Positions 4,764 through 39,284 are shown, counted from the stretch's first letter. The stretch: 64,000 nt of DNA from Hydrogenimonas sp. (GCA_030826715.1 JAUUDL010000115.1:346-64345), one strand, 5' to 3'. The notes: generated by a model from the sequence alone, not told the origin. Program-made: numbers and translations.

Positions 4764-5818
4764 TTTCGATCGGCTCCTATCGCTTCGTTCACTGTTTTGA
4801 AGCCGTCTTTTTCGAGAAGTTTCAGCAAGGTTTCGTTGATGTTTTTGACCAACTCGGGGCCTTTGTAGATCAGGGCGGTATAGACCTGTACGAGATTGGC
4901 GCCGGCTCTGATGCGCCGATAGGCCTCAAATCCGCTGTCGATGCCTCCAACGGAGACGAGTGTCGTTTTGCCGTAGAGTTCACTCGCGATGGCATCGAAA
5001 ATTTCAAAGCTCTTCTCGCGAATGACCCGGCCGCTGATGCCGCCCACTTTCTGTGGATATTTGACCAGTGAGTAGTCGATACTCGTGTTGGTCGCTATAA
5101 TGCCGTCCGCACCCGCTTCGACGGCTCTGGCACAGAGGGCGACCGCCTGCTCTTTGCTCATGTCGGGTGCGATCTTGAGGAGTATCGGTTTGTCGGTGAT
5201 CGATTTGGCCATCGAGAAAAGGGTGTCGATGAAAGCTTCGTTCTGCAGGTCGCGAAGGCCCGGCGTGTTGGGCGATGAGATGTTGATGACCAGATAGTCG
5301 CAAAGGTCTCTGAAGGCTTTGACGCCGTGCTCGTAATCTTTCAGCGCCTCCCGCTCGGGCGTGGTCTTGTTCTTGCCGATATTGACGCCGATGGGGGTGA
5401 CATAGGGGTAGCGCTTTTTGAGCCTTATCTGCATCGCGTAGCTGCCTTCGTTGTTGAAACCCATCGCGTTCTGGAGCGCCTCTTCGTCGATATGACGCCA
5501 GAGTCTGGGCCTGGGATTGCCCGGCTGGGGACGGGGGGTGACGGTACCCACTTCGGTAAAACCGAAACCCAGCGCCGTCATCGCACGGATCAGTTTGGCG
5601 TCTTTGTCGAAACCGGCCGCAAGCCCCACGGGATTGAGAAACTCGCGCCCGAAGAGACGCTGATGCAGGCGTTCATCATCGATAAAATGGCTCTTCACCC
5701 ACGGATTGAGAAGCTGCGGAACCGATTCGCCGATCTGCAGCATTCCCGTTACGAGATGGTGGGCGTATTCGGGATCGAGCCGAAAAAAGAGAGGTTTGAT
5801 CTTTTCGTAATCAATCAT
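4760..5818 (-). CDS. pyrD: Quinone-dependent dihydroorotate dehydrogenase (class 2)
   Basis: GLAAGFDK, NAMGFNN, NISSPNTPGLR, KIAPD motifs. Confidence 0.97.
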   Translation of the reverse strand: MIDYEKIKPLFFRLDPEYAHHLVTGMLQIGESVPQLLNPWVKSHFIDDERLHQRLFGREFLNPVGLAAGFDKDAKLIRAMTALGFGFTEVGTVTPRPQPGNPRPRLWRHIDEEALQNAMGFNNEGSYAMQIRLKKRYPYVTPIGVNIGKNKTTPEREALKDYEHGVKAFRDLCDYLVINISSPNTPGLRDLQNEAFIDTLFSMAKSITDKPILLKIAPDMSKEQAVALCARAVEAGADGIIATNTSIDYSLVKYPQKVGGISGRVIREKSFEIFDAIASELYGKTTLVSVGGIDSGFEAYRRIRAGANLVQVYTALIYKGPELVKNINETLLKLLEKDGFKTVNEAIGADRK

Positions 5819-6006
5819 TCAGTGCATCCAGTCGTTTGAAAATTGGGATCAATTATACTTAAAAAGTCCCTAACCGTGCTTTAAAAGGTGGTTGTAATAG
5901 GCTACAAACAGATGGAACTCTCATTGATATTTGATAATATTACCACAGAATGGGTGCTTTTAGGTACAATAATTTCAACAATCCATATCAAAAGAAGGCC
6001 CGTTCC

Positions 6007-29836: not shown

Positions 29837-31399
29837 TTATTCTACAACGATTTCAGGACGGTTTCTATACAAGCCGATCCGCACATGACACAAAACGATC
29901 TTTTCTCCGCTTTTGGGTCTCTTTATTCCTTTGTGGTAATAGACCTTTATCTTCTTGCCATTGAAATAAAGATAACCCCGTCGATAGACGCCTTCTATCT
30001 TTTCGACCACCTCATTGACGATCGCAAGATCTTTCGGATCATCAATGCGCTTCAACAGAAGAGGGGAGATATCCCTCTTGCCCAAATCTTTCAGCACTCT
30101 AAGCTTCGTCACTTCACGAAGCCCTCGATAGTCGTAGATTTTTTGGATTCCGAGCCGATAGGTATGCCCATTTTTCAGGTTGGCCGTATCGCCATAGACC
30201 AAAATGGCACGCCCGTTTTTCTCTTTCACAATGGCCACACGCCCTTTTTTGTAAATGACGGCAGCATCGTCTATGACGACATTCGTCCACCCAATCGGCA
30301 TGGTATAGAGATCGGCAATATGCGCATGGATCTCTTTTATCGCTTCAGGAAGCGTCTCTTTCGGCGCTTCAACTCTCTCTTTAAGTGAAAAAGGTTTTGT
30401 CGTGAACATGGCGTAGATTGGAAGATGGTCGGAGTAGCCGGCGTCCAGATGCTTTCCATGCCTTCTTTTGGCGATCTGCCAGCGGAAGATGGAGCCGTTT
30501 TTCATGAAAAGATAGTTCGGTCTGAAAAGATGGAAAGAACGATCGAGATAGTTAACCCCTTTGGCATCGAACATCCCTGCAGGCAACAACATATGATCGA
30601 GCGAACTTTTCATCCCGTAGAAGTTGTGTGACCACCGCCGCTGCGGCGGAAGCTCGAGCCATAGATCGACATGGCATGGCCAATGAATCGTCCGCTTGGT
30701 GACGGGTTTGCCATCACAGAACGTTTTGAGGATGTCGTTGATGCCCGTTCTCCCGCCCGTATCGTTGAGGCGCGGCGATTTTCGGATCGTTCGGCTCTCG
30801 TTCCAATTGCTGTTGAGATCGCCCAGAATGATATAATCGGCATCTTTTGGAAGCTGCATCAACCGTTTCATCAGCGCTTTCGCACTGACGATACGCATAC
30901 TCTCCCCGCCGTTTCGAGATTTCCAGTGATTGACGAAAAGCCGTACTCTATGGCCGCTGATATCGACGAGAACTTCGAGAATGTTCCGATAGCGCAGCTT
31001 CCCTGGTGCCGGATCGATCTCTCTCTTTTCAATGATCGGAAATTTCGAAAGAAGCGCGGTTTTGACGGTACTCGCTTTGGTATCGGCGATGGCTCGGTAG
31101 ATCATTGTCCAGCCGCACGCTTTAACACCACGCTGCAGCGCCCGCAGCGCATCGTCATTCTCGATCTCCTGCAATCCGATGATGTCGGGCTTCATATCGC
31201 AGATGACGCGTGAAATGTTTTTCACCTTGATAGAGAAGGTCTTGTCATCCCATCCGTAACCGGTATAGGGAATGTATTCGGTATATTCCGAACCGCTTTT
31301 TCGCAGATCGAAGAGGTTCTCGACATTGTAACTGGCGACTCGGAACTCCCGGCCAAAGAGTGCCAGGGTGAAAAGTAGGAAAACGAGTATCTTTTTCAT
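29837..31399 (-). CDS. Secreted endonuclease/exonuclease/phosphatase family protein
   Basis: Signal peptide, SYNVENLFD, LQEIE, NHWKS, GDLN, SDHLP. Confidence 0.9.
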   Translation of the reverse strand: MKKILVFLLFTLALFGREFRVASYNVENLFDLRKSGSEYTEYIPYTGYGWDDKTFSIKVKNISRVICDMKPDIIGLQEIENDDALRALQRGVKACGWTMIYRAIADTKASTVKTALLSKFPIIEKREIDPAPGKLRYRNILEVLVDISGHRVRLFVNHWKSRNGGESMRIVSAKALMKRLMQLPKDADYIILGDLNSNWNESRTIRKSPRLNDTGGRTGINDILKTFCDGKPVTKRTIHWPCHVDLWLELPPQRRWSHNFYGMKSSLDHMLLPAGMFDAKGVNYLDRSFHLFRPNYLFMKNGSIFRWQIAKRRHGKHLDAGYSDHLPIYAMFTTKPFSLKERVEAPKETLPEAIKEIHAHIADLYTMPIGWTNVVIDDAAVIYKKGRVAIVKEKNGRAILVYGDTANLKNGHTYRLGIQKIYDYRGLREVTKLRVLKDLGKRDISPLLLKRIDDPKDLAIVNEVVEKIEGVYRRGYLYFNGKKIKVYYHKGIKRPKSGEKIVLCHVRIGLYRNRPEIVVE

Positions 31400-31418: not shown

Positions 31419-32177
31419 CTACGATGACGGTTTTGAAAGTTTCGATTTTGATATGACGAAGAGCAAAGAGGCAAGCACCACACAGAAGATGATCGTATAT
31501 CCCGTGGGCAGATCGAACGCATAGGAGATTCCAAGGGCTGCGACAATGGCCACCGAACCGAAGATCCATGCGAAGATTAACTCCGGAAACCTTGTTTGCA
31601 GCAAAGCCGCATAGGCCGGTGCGATCAGCAAAGAGAAGACCACCAGCACTCCCGCGCTCTGGACCGAAGAGGTAACGGTGACCGCCAGCATCGAAAAGAA
31701 GAGTGTCTCACGCCAGAGGCCGGATGTTTTTGGATAGAGCAAGAACATCACGAGCGCGACCGTCATATATAAAAGGGCGGCTTTGGCCACATCTCCTGGC
31801 ATCGTGAAAAGGATGTCGGCCGCGCTCATTTTGTTGAAAAGCTCCATCCCTTCGCTGCTTTGGGCCAGAATCATCATGATCGAAGAGATGCCAAGCGCAT
31901 ACAAAAGCCCAATGAAGGCTTCGATATACACCACCCTTCGGCCTGCAAGCGCGATGACAATGGCGGCGATCAGCGCGAACAGCAGCGTCAGCGGCGTCTG
32001 GTACGCCCCATTTAAAAAGGCGACGCTGATGGCCATCCCCACCGCCGCGATCTGCCCGATCGCCAGATCGGTGAAGATCACCCCGCGCCGGATGATCTCG
32101 ATGCCAAATACGGCATGGATGAAGACGAGCAGTATCCCCAGCGCGAAGGCGGGCCAGAGAATCTCTATCAGCGACAT
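31419..32177 (-). CDS. Metal ABC transporter permease (ABC-3/ZnuB-like)
   Basis: RRGVIFTDLAIGQIAA, GVLVVFSLLIAPA, DLPTG; multi-pass. Confidence 0.88.
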   Translation of the reverse strand: MSLIEILWPAFALGILLVFIHAVFGIEIIRRGVIFTDLAIGQIAAVGMAISVAFLNGAYQTPLTLLFALIAAIVIALAGRRVVYIEAFIGLLYALGISSIMMILAQSSEGMELFNKMSAADILFTMPGDVAKAALLYMTVALVMFLLYPKTSGLWRETLFFSMLAVTVTSSVQSAGVLVVFSLLIAPAYAALLQTRFPELIFAWIFGSVAIVAALGISYAFDLPTGYTIIFCVVLASLLFVISKSKLSKPSS

Positions 32178-33049
32178 AGCCGCTCAGCGTAGCTGAGATA
32201 GAACTTCTCGAGCGTATCTGTACCGGGTACCGCCCCGACATCGTGAGGAAGCACGACGATGTGCGCCCCTGTTTTGTCGGCGATAAAGCGGGCCGTCTTC
32301 TTTTCGTGATAGGGGTCTTGAAGAATGGTCTTTATATCTTCACGGCGCATCATCCCGATCAGCTTGAGGGTATGTTTCGAACTGGGCGAAATGCCGGGCA
32401 ACGGTTCGATCGTTCCCATGGAGACGATGCCGTACCGTGCGAGAAAGTAGTTGTAGAGTTGATGGTACTGGACCACCTTCATACCGCGGCACGGTTTCAT
32501 TTTAGCATCGAAACTCTGCACAAAAGTGTTCCAATGGTCGATGAAGTGTTGCAGACGGCTTTCGTAATCGGAAGCATGCGCAGGGTCGATCTTTTCGAGC
32601 TTGTGGGCAACGAGCATCGCGATTGGAACGATATTGTGTGGATCGGTGTTGAAGTGGGGATTGCCCTGGGGGTGGATATCGCCATAGGCACGTGAAACCG
32701 CCGTTGGCTTGTTGATCAGGTCGATCACCTGGCTGGCATCGGTAAATCCTCTGCTTCCTGGATTGATTTTACCGTTGTTGGCGCTTTTGATCAACGGCGG
32801 AAGCCAGCCGATCTCAAGCCCCGCACCATTGATGACGAGCATGTCGGCACGGCTCAGTTTTCCGAGCAAAGAGGGTTTGGGTACGACAAAATGGGGGTCA
32901 TATTTGGGGCTCGCGAGCACCGTCACCCTGACATGATCACCACCAACACGCTTGACGATCTCGCCAAGATAGGGGTAGGTGGCTGCGACATTGACTTTGG
33001 CGAAAACTGCCGTAGTGAGTAAGAGCACGATAAAGAGTATTTTTTTCAC
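32168..33049 (-). CDS. Cluster A-I metal (Zn/Mn-type) ABC substrate-binding protein
   Basis: Signal peptide, DPHF, GAGLEIGWL, GDIHPQGNPHF, YH, EPLPGISPS; GTG start. Confidence 0.9.
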   Translation of the reverse strand: MKKILFIVLLLTTAVFAKVNVAATYPYLGEIVKRVGGDHVRVTVLASPKYDPHFVVPKPSLLGKLSRADMLVINGAGLEIGWLPPLIKSANNGKINPGSRGFTDASQVIDLINKPTAVSRAYGDIHPQGNPHFNTDPHNIVPIAMLVAHKLEKIDPAHASDYESRLQHFIDHWNTFVQSFDAKMKPCRGMKVVQYHQLYNYFLARYGIVSMGTIEPLPGISPSSKHTLKLIGMMRREDIKTILQDPYHEKKTARFIADKTGAHIVVLPHDVGAVPGTDTLEKFYLSYAERLCR

Positions 33050-33072
33050 TTTTCAATCCTTTTTTGGAAATT

Positions 33073-33190
33073 CGGCCTTACACACTTCGTAAGGCCGTCT
33101 CGAAATCTTTGATTTCGAAGCTTTAGAGGAGTGCAGAGGACATTTGTGTCCTTTGCCAAAACATGGGCTTTGCTCATGTTTTGCATTCCT
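33073..33190. repeat. Multi-hairpin palindromic intergenic element (REP/MITE-like or structured RNA)
   Basis: Four adjacent inverted repeats of 8-12 bp: 33073-33097, 33100-33118, 33133-33156, 33157-33183. Confidence 0.7.
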
Positions 33191-33194
33191 TTGA

Positions 33195-34427
33195 TTAAAA
33201 TGCATGGGCGCCGTGTGCACCGGCTGCGATGTTGATCGACAGGATCACCTCGTCGATATCTTTCCGTTGATTGTCGATCATTTTTGAACGGTCGTGGCTG
33301 TACTGAAGCCTCAGGCGCGACATCGGAAAGGGTTTGTACTCGACCATCGCCGTATAGCGGTCGAGATCGTCGGGCTGGCCGTCACGGTTGCGAAATAGTG
33401 TGTCGTAGCGTACGCCACAGCCGTAGTTCCTGTCGATCTGATAGATAAGCTGCGTGTAGAGGCCCGCTTGCATGTTCGAGGCGCTGCCATCGTTCATATC
33501 ACGCCACAACGCTTCGGTCTGCCATGTCAAAAAGCTGTAGGCATCCAGATAGGTTCGCGTCGTGAAATCGACACCGTAAATATCGGTCGCGTGGCCTGAA
33601 TCGTTGCGTCCGTGAGCGATACTCGTTCCGGCAAGAAGCGTCGTATCTCCCACATCCATACTCCCTTTCAGATAGCCGACATAGAGGTTGTTCTCTTCGG
33701 GATCGCCAAAGCTTCTCTCGTTATTGCCCTGCATCGCTTCGGCGCCTATCATCAGATAGTTGTCGGTCGGGGCGACCCACTGCAGCTGCACGCCAGGATC
33801 GCTGATGCCGTCGGGGCCGAGCATCGCCTTGTAAACAAGCGGCTGGGTATCGAAGTGCCAGCTATGCTGATGCTTGGCGTTGATGCGTCCAAAATTACTT
33901 TTAAATTTTCCAGCTTTGACTCGAAGACTGTAAGGAAGGCTTCGTGTCGTCACATACGCCTCTCCGATTTCTAGTTTATTGGGATGGAGGTGCAAGAATG
34001 CAAAGGCGTCGAAATAGGGATCCACCGCCGAATGGAGTGCAAGTTCGGCATAGTTGAGATTGAACCCTCGGTTTTTGTTGAAAGGAAGTTCCGCTTCACC
34101 TGCATCGACGAATCCCGGAATCTCAAACTTTTCATACTCGGAGTTTTTGACATTGCGCGACACGGCCGAGCCGTTGATGATAAAGGCGATATCGGGTAGA
34201 AAGCCTGTCTGGTTGAACGATGCCGAAAAGGTATCGGCTTTGGCGATCTTCGCCTTCAACTCCTGCTGTTGTCTGTTTTTGTCGTGGTTTTCGATGGTTT
34301 CGATGCGCTGTTGCAGTTGATGAATGACTTTTTGCTGATCGGCCACGATCTTCTTGAGTTGTTCGACATCGCTGTCGGCGCACAGCATCGTCGCCAGGGC
34401 GAGTGAACCCAAAACGGTTTTTTTCAT
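33195..34427 (-). CDS. Putative outer-membrane beta-barrel/porin associated with metal uptake
   Basis: Signal peptide, N-terminal coiled coil, amphipathic beta strands, HQHSWHF and C-terminal GAHGAHAF. Confidence 0.75.
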   Translation of the reverse strand: MKKTVLGSLALATMLCADSDVEQLKKIVADQQKVIHQLQQRIETIENHDKNRQQQELKAKIAKADTFSASFNQTGFLPDIAFIINGSAVSRNVKNSEYEKFEIPGFVDAGEAELPFNKNRGFNLNYAELALHSAVDPYFDAFAFLHLHPNKLEIGEAYVTTRSLPYSLRVKAGKFKSNFGRINAKHQHSWHFDTQPLVYKAMLGPDGISDPGVQLQWVAPTDNYLMIGAEAMQGNNERSFGDPEENNLYVGYLKGSMDVGDTTLLAGTSIAHGRNDSGHATDIYGVDFTTRTYLDAYSFLTWQTEALWRDMNDGSASNMQAGLYTQLIYQIDRNYGCGVRYDTLFRNRDGQPDDLDRYTAMVEYKPFPMSRLRLQYSHDRSKMIDNQRKDIDEVILSINIAAGAHGAHAF

Positions 34428-34432
34428 AATAG

Positions 34433-34480
34433 TCTCCTGAAAATAGAATAATGATGTTTATCGATGAATTGGTCAGGAGA
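34433..34480 (-). promoter_or_regulatory. Shine-Dalgarno-sequestering hairpin between the uORF and the porin gene
   Basis: mRNA UCUCCUGA (34480-34473) is perfectly complementary to UCAGGAGA (34440-34433), which contains the porin RBS. Confidence 0.7.
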
Positions 34481-34748
34481 GGTATGGCGGAGAACGGGCC
34501 GAAAGGCGGGTGGGTCTGCTTGAAAGCTTCAGAATCACCGGCGGCGCAGCAATGTCAACCGGCGGATTTTCTACTTTTAAAAGGGGAATTTCTTGCGGCA
34601 TATCGCCGCTGGAGAGATTCGACTGCAATACACAGATCGGGCAGTCGTTGTGTGGTTTGAGGTCGTCATGATGATGCAGCACACCCAGTAGTGTCGCGGC
34701 GAGCAACAACAGCGACAAAAATTTTCTGAATCCACGCATCTTTTTCAT
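34473..34748 (-). CDS. DUF2946/CruR-like upstream ORF: signal-like N-terminus, HHH, CxxC, C-terminal RSPP
   Basis: MKKMRGFRKFLSLLLLAATLLGVL-HHHDDLKPHNDCPIC-...-ARSPPYLS; TAAAAT -10 element (34761-34756) 7 nt upstream of the ATG. Confidence 0.8.
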   Translation of the reverse strand: MKKMRGFRKFLSLLLLAATLLGVLHHHDDLKPHNDCPICVLQSNLSSGDMPQEIPLLKVENPPVDIAAPPVILKLSSRPTRLSARSPPYLS

Positions 34749-34851
34749 AAACGCGATTTTACGGCTTGTAGGCTTTCAATAGCCTGAGAAATCGCTTAAA
34801 ACTCCCGAAGATTCAAAAATGAAGTTCTTTTGATTTTATACTGGTCATATT

Positions 34852-34907
34852 ATTGATTAAATAATAATCAATTAATTGTTTATTTTGTTTCTGCATTGAT
34901 ATACAAT
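34852..34907 (+). promoter_or_regulatory. Palindromic operator ATTGATTA-N5-TAATCAAT plus -10 TACAAT of the nitrate-type ABC operon
   Basis: Perfect 8-bp inverted repeat at 34852-34872, TACAAT at 34902-34907; near-identical site upstream of glnA. Confidence 0.6.
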
Positions 34908-34937
34908 TACTGACGTATTCACAAAAAAGGAGCTGGA

Positions 34938-36329
34938 ATGAAAAAGAAGTTGCTTACCATCGGAATAGGGTTGTCACTGACTGCTGTTAGCTTGATGGCA
35001 GACATTGAAAAGAAAAAACTCAATATAGGGTTCATCGCACTCACCGACTGTGCGCCGATAGTCATCGCCAAAGAGAAAGGATTTTTCAAAAAGAATGGTC
35101 TGCAGGTGAGGCTCGTTAAAGAGGGCGCGGGCTGGCCCGGTATCCAGCAAAAGGTTATCAACGGACAGTACGACTTTTCTCATGCCTTGGCAGGTATGCC
35201 GATCGCGGGTACTCTGAGTCTGATGGGAAATGCGCATCTTGTGGCTCTGCTGAGTCTGGACTATAACGGAAACGCCATTACGTTTGGAAACAAACTCGTC
35301 AAAAAGATGGAGAAATATGGACTCGATAAATACAAAAGGCCAGTAGGAAGCGAACCGCTGAAAAAATATATCACCGATCTGGAGAAAAAAGAGGGCTCGA
35401 ACTACTCCCCTTTGGTTTTTGGTATGGTCGGCCCTTATTCGACACACAATTACGAAATCAGATACTGGATGAGCACCAGCGGGATCGATCCGGACAAGGA
35501 TACCAAGCTCAAGCCCTTTCCCCCTCCGACGATGCCTCAGAACCTTATCGCTGGAAACATCGCCGGATATTGTGTGGGTGAGCCCTGGAACGAGCGGATC
35601 GTGATGGCGAAAAAAGGAAGCGCTCTGGTCACCAACTACGACATCTGGAACAACAATCCCGAAAAGGTCCTTCAGGCACGGGCTGATTTCGTCAAAAAGT
35701 ATCCAGAGACGACCAAAGCGGTCATGAAATCAGTTTTGGAGGCCCAGATGTGGCTCGATACAAGCTGGGATCACCGGAAGGAAGCCGCGAAAATTCTGAG
35801 CAAAAAGCAGTATGTCTATGCGCCGGTGAAAGTGCTTGAAAAGTCCATGACCGGAACATTCCAGTATGTGGCGGGTCACAAATCAGAACCGAACCCGATG
35901 TTCAACGTCTTCGCCAATAACTATGCAGCCTACCCATTCTATAGCCACGGTATGTGGTTCATCACCCAGATGTATCGGTGGGGTCAGCTGAAAAAGGCCG
36001 TGGATATGAAAAAAGTGATCGAATTGGTCTATCAACCCAAACTCTTCGAGGAAGTGGCGAAAGGGGTAGGCTATAAACTTCCGAAGAGCCCTTGGAAGGT
36101 CGATGGTGTCGATAAATACAACAAATTCATGGATGGCAAGATCTATGATCCCAACAAGGCAGTGGAGTATATCTACAGCTTCAACGTGAAACATCCCGCC
36201 GTAGGCCAGACTGAGCTGAAAAAAGTGAATGGATGGGAAGGAACACTCAAGACAGCGCAACCGCCCTACGAGTGCCCCTACGGTCCTGCCGGCTGTGCAG
36301 ACCCCAAATATGTCACGAAACAGAAATAA
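34938..36329 (+). CDS. nrtA: NrtA/CmpA family nitrate/nitrite/bicarbonate/cyanate ABC substrate-binding protein
   Basis: GFIALTDCAP, STHNYEIRYW, GYCVGEPWN, PEKV, WFITQMYRWG. Confidence 0.88.
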   Translation: MKKKLLTIGIGLSLTAVSLMADIEKKKLNIGFIALTDCAPIVIAKEKGFFKKNGLQVRLVKEGAGWPGIQQKVINGQYDFSHALAGMPIAGTLSLMGNAHLVALLSLDYNGNAITFGNKLVKKMEKYGLDKYKRPVGSEPLKKYITDLEKKEGSNYSPLVFGMVGPYSTHNYEIRYWMSTSGIDPDKDTKLKPFPPPTMPQNLIAGNIAGYCVGEPWNERIVMAKKGSALVTNYDIWNNNPEKVLQARADFVKKYPETTKAVMKSVLEAQMWLDTSWDHRKEAAKILSKKQYVYAPVKVLEKSMTGTFQYVAGHKSEPNPMFNVFANNYAAYPFYSHGMWFITQMYRWGQLKKAVDMKKVIELVYQPKLFEEVAKGVGYKLPKSPWKVDGVDKYNKFMDGKIYDPNKAVEYIYSFNVKHPAVGQTELKKVNGWEGTLKTAQPPYECPYGPAGCADPKYVTKQK

Positions 36330-36338
36330 AGGTAGACG

Positions 36339-37160
36339 ATGTCAAAGAACGATCTGTTGTCGAGAATCATACTCCCTCTCTTGACCTTTATCGCGATTGT
36401 CGCACTTTGGGCGGAACTATCGGCATATATTGAAAACCTGCCGAGCCCTCATGATGTATGGTTGGCCGCATTCGGTGGGATCACACCGGATGGAGATGTC
36501 ATCACAGGTGTTCTGACCGACCCTTTCTATATCAACAGCGATGAGGACAAAGGGATATTCTGGCAGGTGCTTGCTTCTTTGGAGAGAGTGCTTGCCGGTT
36601 TTGTCCTGGCCATCGTGGTCGGTGTCCCCCTCGGCCTCGCCATCGGAATGAGCAAAAAGGTCTTTTATGCCCTCAATCCGTACATTCAGATCCTCAAACC
36701 GGTCTCGCCACTGGCATGGTTGCCGCTCTTTTTGTTGATCTTTCAGGCTATCAATCCGACCGCAATCGCGACGATTTTCATCACATCCATATGGCCGATC
36801 ATTTCCAATACTATTCTGGGGGTGCAAAATGTCAACAAAGATTACATCAACGTCGCGAGAATTTTGAAATTCTCACCCATTGAGATGGTCTATCAGATCA
36901 TGCTGCCGGTCGCTGTGCCCTATATTTTCACGGGAATGAGACTCTCTCTTGGAATTGCGTGGATCGTCATCGTCGCGGCCGAAATGCTTACCGGCGGTAC
37001 AGGTATCGGGTTCTGGATATGGGATGAGTACAATAATCTCAATTACCCGAACATCATCGTGGGCATTATCATTGTCGGTATCGTCGGATGGATCCTCGAT
37101 ACCGTCATGGGAAAAATTTCAGACTTTTTCGACTATAGAAAAAGAGGAACGGCATCATGA
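36339..37160 (+). CDS. nrtB: Nitrate-type ABC permease
   Basis: LKPVSPLAWLP, IFTGMRLSLGIAW, AAEML. Confidence 0.88.
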   Translation: MSKNDLLSRIILPLLTFIAIVALWAELSAYIENLPSPHDVWLAAFGGITPDGDVITGVLTDPFYINSDEDKGIFWQVLASLERVLAGFVLAIVVGVPLGLAIGMSKKVFYALNPYIQILKPVSPLAWLPLFLLIFQAINPTAIATIFITSIWPIISNTILGVQNVNKDYINVARILKFSPIEMVYQIMLPVAVPYIFTGMRLSLGIAWIVIVAAEMLTGGTGIGFWIWDEYNNLNYPNIIVGIIIVGIVGWILDTVMGKISDFFDYRKRGTAS

Positions 37161-37951
37161 AAAACAAGTTTTTGGTTTTGGAAAATGTGGAGAAGAGGTT
37201 TCCCGTCCCTGGCAAAAAGGATTATGTCGCGGTCACCGGGGTCAATCTGGAGATTCAAAAAGATGAGATCGTTTCGATCATCGGACACAGCGGCTGCGGA
37301 AAGAGTACATTGCTCAATATGATTTCTGGTCTGGATATGCAGACCTCCGGTCATATCTTTCTCAAAGGCAAGGAGATCACGGGGCCGGGACCGGATAGGG
37401 CGGTCGTCTTTCAGAATCATTCGCTGCTGCCATGGCTGACCGTCTACGACAATATCGAAATGGCAGTCAAAAAAGTGATGCCGGAACTCTCATCCAAAGA
37501 GCTCAGGGAGCGGGTGGAAAAATTCATCAATCTTGTAAACCTGGGGCCGGCCAAAGACAAATATCCCGGAGAGATCAGCGGTGGGATGAAACAGAGGGTC
37601 GGCATCGCCCGGGCGCTCTCTATCAAACCCGATGTCCTGCTGATGGACGAGCCATTCGGTGCTCTCGATTCGCTCACCCGGGCCAACCTGCAGGATCATC
37701 TGATGCGTATCCAGCAAAAGGTCAAGAATACGGTCGTCATCATCACCCACGATGTGGATGAAGCGGTGCTGTTGAGCGACCGGGTCATCATGATGACCAA
37801 CGGTCCCGCCGCTACGATCGGCGAAATCCTCGAGGTTAATCTGGAGCGTCCACGAGACAGAGTGGCCCTGCAGGAGGACCATGAATATATCAGGTGCCGT
37901 GAGGCTATTTTGGAATTTTTGTATAAAAAATTTGCCAAAGAAGATGAATAG
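37157..37951 (+). CDS. nrtD: Nitrate-type ABC ATP-binding protein (single-domain NrtD-like)
   Basis: GHSGCGKS, VFQNHSLLPWL, ISGGMKQRV, DEPFGALD. Confidence 0.88.
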   Translation: MKNKFLVLENVEKRFPVPGKKDYVAVTGVNLEIQKDEIVSIIGHSGCGKSTLLNMISGLDMQTSGHIFLKGKEITGPGPDRAVVFQNHSLLPWLTVYDNIEMAVKKVMPELSSKELRERVEKFINLVNLGPAKDKYPGEISGGMKQRVGIARALSIKPDVLLMDEPFGALDSLTRANLQDHLMRIQQKVKNTVVIITHDVDEAVLLSDRVIMMTNGPAATIGEILEVNLERPRDRVALQEDHEYIRCREAILEFLYKKFAKEDE

Positions 37952-37997
37952 TGCCAATGATATGTCACATTTTCAATTTCACCATTAGGAGTAAAAC

Positions 37998-39284
37998 ATG
38001 AACAAAATCAAGATGAGTCTTGTTGCAGCGATCGCAGCGGCTGCAGCCACCACAGGCGCCAACGCAGGTGCTCTCGACAACATCCTCAGCAATCCGAAGC
38101 TCGATATCGAACTTCGACCGAGATACGAGTATGCCGATGTCGACAACAATGGTAAAGATTCCGCCAGTGCCCTGACGGTTCGTACCGCGTTGGGTGTCCA
38201 AACGGGTCTTTTCGATGTTGATGGCCTGAACTTGCAACTTCAGGCGATGAGTGTCGACCACTTCGGACTTGTTGCCGACTACGCACCTGTAGATTCAAAA
38301 TATGATGTTGTTGCCGATGGGCCCCAGACCCGTATGACACAGGCAAATATTTCGTACAGTGCCAACGATTTCACCGGTATCTTGGGTCGTAAAATGGTCG
38401 TTCTCGACAATGCCCGCTTCATCGGTAACGTCGGCTGGAGACAGATGCCTCAGACATACGACCTCGCGGCGGCTATCTACAACGGCGTCGAGAATCTGAG
38501 CCTTCTGGGCGCGTATGTCAACCGTGTCAACCGTATTTTCAACGCTCCGGGCAATGGCTTTAAAAATGATCATTTCGACACGGCAAGCGTACTGCTGCAT
38601 GCCACATACAAGGCGATGCCCGAATTGACATTGACCGCGTATGACTATATGATTGAAAACTTTGCCGATCATATCGGTATCCGTGCAACGGGAAAAGTAC
38701 CTGTCGGAGATATCAAACTGGGATATGAAGCGGAATATGCCGTCCAAAACGACCCGAGTATGACCGATGATGACGATGCCGCCAATACGGGCGTAGGCAG
38801 TGCAGATATCGAACAGGATGCCAGTTACTATAAAATCGGTCTTTCAGGAAGCATGAATGAGTTCACACTTGGTGTGGCATATGAGTTCCTGAGCGACAAA
38901 GGCGATGGCGATGTTGCATTCAGTACGCCTCTTGCCACACTGCACGCAATGAACGGATGGGCCGATGTCTTTCTTGCAACGCCAGCGGAAGGCTTGATCG
39001 ACACCAGTGTCAAACTCGCCTATAACGCCGGTGAATATGGAAAACTGGCTGCCATCTATCACAGCTTCAGCAGCGATTCCAAGAATGCAGCGGGCGATGA
39101 TGACCTCGGATCGGAAATCGATGCTGCTTACAAAATCAAAGTCGCCAAAGGTCTCGGCCTTCTGCTCAAAGGGGCATGGTACAGCAAAGGTGACGATTCA
39201 TTTAGTAATGAATATCCAAAGAACATCCAAGATACTACCAAATACTGGGTACAGCTCGACTACAAATTCCACGCCGAAATGTAA
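37998..39284 (+). CDS. Alginate-export-like outer-membrane porin following the nitrate-type ABC genes
   Basis: Signal peptide, RPRYE, RFIGNVGWRQ, FSTPLATLHAMNGWADVF, C-terminal beta strand. Confidence 0.78.
   Translation: MNKIKMSLVAAIAAAAATTGANAGALDNILSNPKLDIELRPRYEYADVDNNGKDSASALTVRTALGVQTGLFDVDGLNLQLQAMSVDHFGLVADYAPVDSKYDVVADGPQTRMTQANISYSANDFTGILGRKMVVLDNARFIGNVGWRQMPQTYDLAAAIYNGVENLSLLGAYVNRVNRIFNAPGNGFKNDHFDTASVLLHATYKAMPELTLTAYDYMIENFADHIGIRATGKVPVGDIKLGYEAEYAVQNDPSMTDDDDAANTGVGSADIEQDASYYKIGLSGSMNEFTLGVAYEFLSDKGDGDVAFSTPLATLHAMNGWADVFLATPAEGLIDTSVKLAYNAGEYGKLAAIYHSFSSDSKNAAGDDDLGSEIDAAYKIKVAKGLGLLLKGAWYSKGDDSFSNEYPKNIQDTTKYWVQLDYKFHAEM

Follow-up and report, generated by a model that had tools for sequence, protein, structure and literature searches.

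A candidate zinc-responsive, ribosome-stalling leader upstream of porin, ZnuA and ZnuB genes in Hydrogenimonas sp.

A 64,000 nt stretch of the genome of Hydrogenimonas sp. (GCA_030826715.1 JAUUDL010000115.1:346-64345; hereafter the window) carries on its minus strand a 91-codon open reading frame (ORF), here called the leader, followed by genes for a porin, a ZnuA-type metal-binding protein and a ZnuB-type permease. The leader contains a histidine- and cysteine-rich segment, ends in a proline motif predicted to arrest the ribosome and finishes in nucleotides complementary to the porin gene's Shine-Dalgarno (SD) sequence; it is examined here as a candidate metal-responsive switch of the three genes behind it. 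The features are as follows.

34756..34761, minus strand: candidate -10 box TAAAAT, ending 7 nt before the ATG (from the sequence and hexamer conservation)
34473..34748, minus strand: leader ORF of 91 aa, CruR/CutF (DUF2946)-like (from the sequence and a weak PF11162 match)
34677..34748, minus strand: basic-then-hydrophobic N-terminus, codons 1-24, a predicted signal peptide or anchor (from the sequence and hydropathy)
34632..34676, minus strand: predicted metal site H25-H26-H27-D-D29...H33..C36-P-I-C39 (from conservation)
34485..34496, minus strand: RSPP (R85-S86-P87-P88), predicted arrest motif (PP in 83 of 83 loci)
34473..34480, minus strand: anti-SD arm UCUCCUGA, last codons and stop, +11 to +18 from the P-site codon (from the sequence and folding)
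34433..34440, minus strand: porin SD arm UCAGGAGA (from the sequence)
33195..34427, minus strand: porin, predicted 16 strands (AlphaFold2, Foldseek)
32168..33049, minus strand: ZnuA/AztC-type metal-binding protein (PF01297, E=2e-45)
31419..32177, minus strand: ZnuB-type (ABC-3) permease (PF00950, E=7e-11)

The reading frame, its basic-hydrophobic N-terminus and the RSPP at residues 85-88 had been pointed out in a first-pass annotation of the DNA and are borne out by the sequence. Residues 25-39 read HHHDDLKPHNDCPIC, and 45 residues separate the CxxC from R85. P87 (codon 34490-34488) is the predicted P-site residue of the stalled ribosome, with P88 in the A site, a register adopted from the CruR toeprinting in PMC12992588. 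Comparison with the Pfam family PF11162 (DUF2946), which the first-pass annotation had called for, gave a match over profile positions 53-117 (E=0.022), spanning the part from CxxC to RAPP, at 15.9 bits, below the gathering cut-off of 23.7 bits. The DUF2946 features found in the leader are the CxxC, a C-terminal RxPP (here RSPP), the spacing of about 45 residues, the N-terminal hydropathy and the first position in an operon for metal homeostasis. A leader profile run against 1.84 billion representatives returned 605 matches at E<=0.001; among the best 150 of the 605, 72 matched DUF2946 at E<=0.1 and 6 were at or above its cut-off, while motif counts within these 150 are circular and were unused as evidence. 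By these profile scores the leader group grades into the DUF2946 family. No second convincing leader of such type was found in the own genome, which is 79% complete, and motif counts in the own proteome (468,019 residues), taken for signs of RxPP depletion, carry little information: RAPP 1 and RSPP 1, but also AAPP 1 and KAPP 2.

The last nucleotides of the leader, TCTCCTGA (34480-34473), are the exact reverse complement of TCAGGAGA (34440-34433) at the ribosome-binding site (RBS) of the porin gene, the ATG of which lies 45 nt downstream of the leader stop. The perfect 8-nt pairing described in the first-pass annotation is therefore present, and when the 379-nt leader region is folded in full, all 8 pairs are predicted at probability 0.92-1.0. 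The 5' arm follows the second Pro codon by 4 nt, and the partner of AGGAG lies at +12 to +16, within the predicted stall footprint as had been proposed; the footprint limits imposed here were +13 and +15. Opening the RBS of the window costs 11.2 kcal/mol in the folding computation and 5.0 or 3.4 kcal/mol with the footprint to +13 or +15. None of 30 shuffles of the stretch from the prolines to the SD attains 11.2 kcal/mol, and among 24 control junctions of the own genome 4 are as closed as the window and none shows its footprint drop of 7.8 kcal/mol. A stem-loop that covers the SD of the next gene and lies where a stalled ribosome can reach it, the arrangement of CutF, is thus computed for this locus. 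An Rfam scan of 33000-36000 gave a single chance-level match (E=0.96) and no known riboswitch or RNA family.

Related loci were gathered with the porin as bait. After exclusion of 19 of the 73 distinct porin-selected loci, which had less than 450 nt upstream, the leader was found upstream of the porin in 52 of the 54 assessed (50 by pattern; the other two, L015 and L016, were missed by the range searched). Once duplicates, two loci without downstream DNA and L118 (long insertion) had been dropped, 83 junctions were kept, 80 of which stand before the porin; the loci are mutually related, and similar habitats are shared by many of them, which makes all counts given here overstate independence. 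The porin is present in 20 of 61 related genomes, whereas the leader profile matches 46 of 301 genomes of the order, with one copy each, and has no match in five families sampled at 24 genomes. In L147 (1-616) an unrelated ORF, apparently similar to a toxin-antitoxin nuclease, ends just upstream of the porin, and L150 (1-988) is likewise without leader.

The paired prolines occur in all 83 junctions and stand three residues from the C-terminus in 62. The motif is RAPP in 56, RSPP in 12, QAPP in 5, HAPP in 4 and RDPP, TAPP and NAPP in 2 each; 79 of the 83 (RAPP, RSPP, RDPP, QAPP, HAPP) are motifs reported to arrest fully or in part in PMC12992588 and PMC10987492. The CxxC is found in 79 of 81 full-length leaders and is followed at a nearly constant distance by the motif (45/46 residues in 69, 43/44 in 9 and 24 in 1). 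The conservation expected of R-x-P-P and CxxC in relatives is accordingly there in the wider form RxPP/xAPP, with RSPP itself a minority form, and of the Pro-rich spacer of about 45 residues that had been described, the length stands and the Pro-richness does not (7/45 in the window leader, median 2/45 in 82 relatives). RSPP or a Pro-rich spacer was consequently rejected as a defining trait of the variant. Differences at codon positions 1, 2 and 3 number 155, 94 and 286 in 16 disjoint leader pairs, which shows that the ORF is coding, and the best 11-residue hydropathy is 2.0-3.2 in 76 of 76 relatives with an assigned start.

A signal-like N-terminus, metal ligands and purifying selection at the protein level would also suit a periplasmic metal-binding accessory of the transporter, with motif and helix incidental. 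Such a protein would hardly need a 45-residue spacer that varies freely in sequence and is held in length, prolines so close to the end or a constrained choice of synonymous terminal codons, and this explanation has only a slim chance of being right. The histidines bear on another possibility, namely that the leader reports on secretion or on disulfide formation in the periplasm, or does no more than couple translation, with no metal sensing. RAPP peptides first came to light as monitors of Sec/YidC, the periplasm can oxidise a CxxC, as in the CutF model, and termination by itself opens the helix briefly. However, HxH, present upstream of CxxC in 75 of the 79 leaders with CxxC, is as conserved as the cysteines, the two members without CxxC retain histidines, and the cargo is metal uptake and not export machinery, so that a monitor or simple coupling is quite improbable. 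In the CxxC-bearing relatives C36 and C39 are conserved at 100%, H25/H26/H27 at 80/85/90%, H33 at 80% and D29 at 73%.

The pairing recurs with the leader. The SD is paired inside the predicted footprint in 69 of the 83 loci; in 51 of them the start of its partner lies between +9 and +13, in the other 18 between -1 and +7, where the proline codons are, and the register is kept although the distance from P site to ATG spans 53 to 171 nt. Imposing the footprint brings the median opening cost down from 8.3 kcal/mol to 4.0 (+13) and 3.4 (+15) kcal/mol, with a drop of at least 2 kcal/mol in 69/83 and 71/83, respectively; the leader junctions lose a median of 4.6 kcal/mol, the 24 control junctions one of 0.7. 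The closed state is matched by at most 1 of 30 shuffles in 33 loci. In L118 (2720-3000), L036, L081, L086 and L129 insertions place leader and porin 119-280 nt apart; pairing of the SD at +13 to +16 is retained in L081 and L086 and absent in L036 and L129.

Codon choice points the same way. The Ser three residues past PP is encoded by TCN in 55 of 55 cases (TCC in 37, AGY in 0), compared with 98 AGY and 31 TCC among 358 spacer serines, and judged by this usage the conserved terminal 'S-stop' is the anti-SD. The mean helix measures 7.5 pairs, against 6.2 for swapped partners (0 of 500 swaps reach the own value), and in 41 disjoint nearest pairs the own arms bind better in 25, worse in 8 and equally in 8 (sign test p=0.005), a comparison to which shared base composition may contribute. 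At the middle base of the stop codon, in fixed register over 50 loci, 30 have an A-T pair (TAA/TTA) and 4 a G-C pair (TGA/TCA), for the latter of which a quick tree needs no fewer than 3 changes. The compensatory pairing looked for on the advice of the first-pass annotation is hence seen in the preference for own arms and is partial at the stop codon. By these measures the hairpin is under RNA-level selection, and a cis-acting combination of stall and SD switch is highly probable.

The same nucleotides could serve a CruR-like output in which Rho-dependent termination after the ribosome leaves is the main effect and the hairpin secondary. The C-over-G skew is -0.01 in the porin gene but climbs to 0.33 over the 70 nt that precede the motif and to 0.56 around it, with C31/G9 in the window at 34526-34449. 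Much of this C excess, however, follows of necessity from the Pro codons and the anti-SD, the gap to the next gene is 45 nt here and 162 nt for CruR, and codon choice together with the pairing register favours the helix. Rho as the main output is distinctly unlikely, and both layers can coexist.

At the 5' end, the TAAAAT placed 7 nt before the ATG by the first-pass annotation has counterparts in the relatives. The start could be assigned in 76 junctions (7 unassigned), and in 46 of them the ATG stands 6-7 nt past the end of a TAnn[A/T]T hexamer, in 55 of them 4-9 nt past it, any other distance having 11 or fewer; among several candidate ATGs the one with the hexamer was preferred, which biases the hexamer count upward. 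The base profile of the 76 junctions held no other conserved upstream motif, and a sigma-70 scanner that requires a -35 box called no minus-strand promoter; no terminator was called. From the position of the hexamer the leader mRNA is likely leaderless. Ten leaders start instead behind an SD, with a short 5' leader, and one clade (L029, L033, L069-L074, L078, L079) combines such an SD-led start with Q/H/N-APP and a conserved xGFxAxAPP stretch.

The unit of porin, binding protein and permease that had been proposed behind the leader is upheld. An AlphaFold2 model of the porin from a 112-row alignment (pLDDT 82.7; a single-sequence fold with pLDDT 36 was discarded) has 16 strands and no plug, and its Foldseek matches are porins, e.g. 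chitoporin, OmpT, DcaP and OprP. TonB-dependent receptors are 22-strand barrels with a plug domain, and the database name 'TonB-dependent receptor' for this cargo was rejected. The ZnuA-type protein has AztC as best NCBIfam match, below its cut-off; its best solved relative (2ov1/1pq4, E=2e-19) is a binding protein of zinc uptake, and three histidines align between the two. An ABC P-loop was found in 0 of 42 loci holding all three genes and 1 kb beyond, so the unit has no ATPase. A second znuA is present in every one of 5 complete genomes; the 6 second-znuA loci examined have no xAPP leader upstream and in 4 a P-loop ATPase, and the ATPase of the second operon may serve both units. One example of a znuA-ATPase-znuB operon without leader lies at G000:C51, about 5077-5919; the gene directly before it in G000 and G002 is presumably chorismate-synthase-like.

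Around the unit, an exported endonuclease/exonuclease/phosphatase gene lies 3' of the permease (29837-31399) and may share the transcript; the same phosphatase-type gene is 3' of the unit or porin in L103 and L111. In L011-L013, L106 and L107 (three genomes of one genus) a ferrochelatase follows leader and porin in place of znuA-znuB. A nitrate-type ABC transporter with an Opr porin (34938-39284) is divergent from the leader, across a 189-nt gap.

Zinc is suggested by Vibrio. A Vibrio campbellii locus (L167) has all three cargo genes and just upstream two perfect TGTTAT-N3-ATAACA boxes, with no match to the leader. Its counterpart in V. parahaemolyticus, omr, znuAII and znuBII, equated with L167 by gene names and order and not by sequence, belongs to the Zur regulon and is up 1034-, 543- and 283-fold in zinc limitation, according to PMC9817125. 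In Campylobacterota a Zur box with at most one mismatch was present in 0 of 74 loci, and the 45 leader-bearing genomes have two Fur-family matches in 36, one in 4, three in 4 and four in 1, with none passing the Zur profile cut-off, a narrow profile that 1 of 14 controls (E. coli) passes. Twelve Fur-family proteins of 6 genomes had Fur or PerR as best match, all below the cut-offs. On these searches the Campylobacterota with the leader seem to be without Zur, the customary zinc regulator. Confinement of such leaders to genomes without Zur was considered and rejected, as ZrgD heads a Zur-controlled operon.

The same stall-and-hairpin switch might instead answer to another metal (Ni, Co, Cu or Mn) or to several. 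The CxxC senses copper in CruR and CutF, the effect of zinc on bfrG is only moderate, His-only CutF-like clusters stand before Ni/Co genes, and a second znuA is at hand in each complete genome. Three leaders (L079, L080 and L085; HAPP, HAPP and TAPP) head a different outer-membrane barrel gene of 275-278 aa, which has no Pfam family at cut-off (L079:535-4978, L080:1309-2136, L085:4168-5004); in L079 trmO, an OprD porin, cbiM and cbiK follow, and from this neighbourhood the L079 leader is a possible cobalt or nickel variant. On the other side, the binding protein is nearest to zinc-uptake structures, with its histidines aligned, and the Vibrio unit is Zur-boxed and responsive to zinc starvation. 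Zinc is likely the main signal, and a different or mixed metal signal is unlikely.

As to direction, RAPP arrests without ligand in vitro, even with EF-P (PMC12992588). As it does so and resists EF-P, the stalled and open state is the expected default, and with an importer as cargo, metal would be expected to end the stall. In an engineered construct, SecM arrest is relieved when zinc drives a Cys2His2 finger to fold (PMC4571824). The reverse, in which metal induces or prolongs the stall and switches the unit on as in CutF, draws on the fact that CutF shares the signal, the Cys motif, the proline motif and the SD stem-loop, and that the czrCBA export operon of Caulobacter, which zinc activates, begins with a DUF2946 gene. 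Here, though, the cargo is an importer, the Vibrio homologue is zinc-repressed and RAPP needs no ligand to arrest; induction by metal is very improbable. That metal releases the stall can be held with good confidence, and that it shuts uptake off is the best reading of the comparison.

We infer arrest at RSPP, zinc as the metal and release as its effect, and the whole would run as follows. A promoter with no visible operator would make a mostly leaderless mRNA, as hexamer conservation suggests. Going by the family, the ribosome would stall with P87 in the P site, like CruR at RAPP, and cover the last codons (the arm from +11), so that by sequence and folding the SD is freed and the RBS becomes cheaper to open. 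With metal present, H25, H27, H33, C36 and C39 would fold round the ion some 48-60 residues from the P site and pull on the chain; the stall would be released, the ribosome would finish four codons later and the helix would re-form. C-rich RNA near the stall site may add Rho-dependent polarity. The metal would be zinc, and the leader would do the job of Zur for the homologue of the Vibrio three-gene unit. Taken together, the leader is more likely than not a ribosome-stalling zinc switch, in which the stall would open the RBS of the porin-ZnuA-ZnuB unit and zinc binding would release the stall.

Several points weigh against this conclusion, which is a computational one. RSPP is only partly permissive in ApdA/ApdP (PMC12992588), and the scores of the window leader and of 144 of the best 150 profile matches lie below the DUF2946 cut-off. 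Two of the 54 porin loci (L147 and L150) are without leader, and the relatedness of the loci inflates every count. Of the 83 junctions, 14 have no SD partner inside the footprint (in 8 the SD pairs elsewhere, and in 6 no partner dominates), and in 50 the closed state is matched by more than 1 of 30 shuffles, so that closure alone is unremarkable there. At the stop position 16 of 50 loci lack an A-T or G-C pair, 8 of them apparently register-shifted. A terminating ribosome opens the RBS of the window much like a stalled one (3.2 and 3.4 kcal/mol, computed), and the switch must therefore act through dwell time. The Zur profile is narrow, the search for a regulator covered the Fur family, with its proteins classified in 6 genomes, and 5 of 45 genomes carry extra Fur-family genes. 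The three leaders before the other barrel gene, with the cbi genes of L079, indicate that the metal may vary, and the features shared with CutF belong to a system of opposite direction.

No zinc riboswitch is known according to the CruR paper (PMC9426467), and nascent-chain metal sensing has been shown only for copper, in CruR and CutF. The locus is a compact candidate for zinc: its leader has 91 codons, its helix has 8 bp and keeps a fixed register, and its cargo is homologous to a Vibrio unit proven to serve in zinc starvation. If the proposal is true, it would explain how zinc uptake is limited in bacteria without evident Zur, assign DUF2607/ZrgD a role and yield a compact zinc-off switch that can be encoded genetically; the 'TonB-dependent' name of a porin family would be corrected as well. 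As a broader and tentative suggestion, His/Cys-RAPP leaders could be a widespread zinc-sensing translational switch, the peptide equivalent of the zinc riboswitch that is missing, and one that has fully replaced Zur for the inducible unit in these Campylobacterota, with zinc-driven folding of the nascent chain as the natural release force and Vibrio ZrgD (DUF2607) as the same device atop Zur.

No paper was found on a zinc-sensing RAPP leader or on the present locus, subscription journals lying outside the coverage and the CutF-like list (PMC9973294 File S1) possibly naming Campylobacterota members; six Campylobacterota names had no match in the supplements of PMC9426467. Comparable gene pairs are present, uninterpreted, in a published source table. 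What is apparently undescribed is a zinc version standing where Vibrio has a Zur box, with a codon-level trace of the anti-SD. The novelty is nevertheless lower than the first-pass annotation had put it, since control through an SD hairpin by a DUF2946 leader is known from CutF, and the leader is a new variant within the published CruR/CutF (DUF2946-like) class.

The closest system in direction is CruR (Bp2923) of Bordetella pertussis, a DUF2946/PF11162 protein described in PMC9426467, with arrest demonstrated in PMC12992588. Like the window leader, CruR comes first in a metal-import operon and has an export signal (a predicted one in the window leader), a CxxC 45 residues before RxPP and the motif three residues from the end, and metal is predicted to stop uptake; in PMC9426467 its spacer of 45 does not tolerate 5 more residues, which abolish control. 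The cruR gene does not complement in trans. The two differ in output, which is Rho termination across a 162-nt gap in CruR and an SD-hiding helix across 45 nt here, and in cargo, which is a TonB-dependent transporter under copper in CruR and porin-ZnuA-ZnuB, likely under zinc, in the window. CruR is 145 aa long with a 45-nt 5' leader; the window leader has 91 aa, is likely leaderless and bears HxH beside the CxxC.

CutF of Rhodobacter capsulatus (PMC9973294 and bioRxiv 10.1101/2025.02.05.636593) is also an exported Cys-motif leader, and there a stalled ribosome melts a stem-loop over the SD of the next gene; export and melting are predictions for the window leader. CutF has CxxxC, PPP and an EF-P-dependent, copper-induced stall that turns a Tat-exported detoxifying oxidase on, unlike the CxxC with HxH, the RxPP, the importer cargo and the opposite predicted direction here. 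CutF requires its signal (the same preprint), while CruR sensing works without signal peptide (PMC9426467). The window leader, which very likely acts in cis by arresting ribosomes and so gates translation of the uptake genes, is predicted to share its direction with CruR and its output with CutF. SecM, ApdA/ApdP and the RQH (RAPP/QAPP/HAPP) peptides (PMC10987492) share the motif set, an N-terminal localisation signal and an SD stem-loop opened by the stall, but they monitor Sec/YidC activity, head secA, secDF or yidC and have no metal site.

In Vibrio, the omr-znuA2-znuB2 unit (PMC9817125; L167) has homologous cargo (E 6e-25, 3e-42 and 3e-17) in the same order, no ATPase and a porin ending in GAHGAHAF, but is controlled by Zur boxes and lacks a leader gene. 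ZrgD (DUF2607/PF10795), first in the Vibrio zinc operon zrgDABCE, has a hydrophobic N-terminus, a His-rich segment with Cys and RAPP near its end (PMC12992588 source table), and is a feature-based neighbour of the leader in the Atlas. It is listed as of unknown function, usually has one Cys and not CxxC in Vibrio, coexists with Zur and heads zrgA; from its sequence features ZrgD is likely a leader of the same class.

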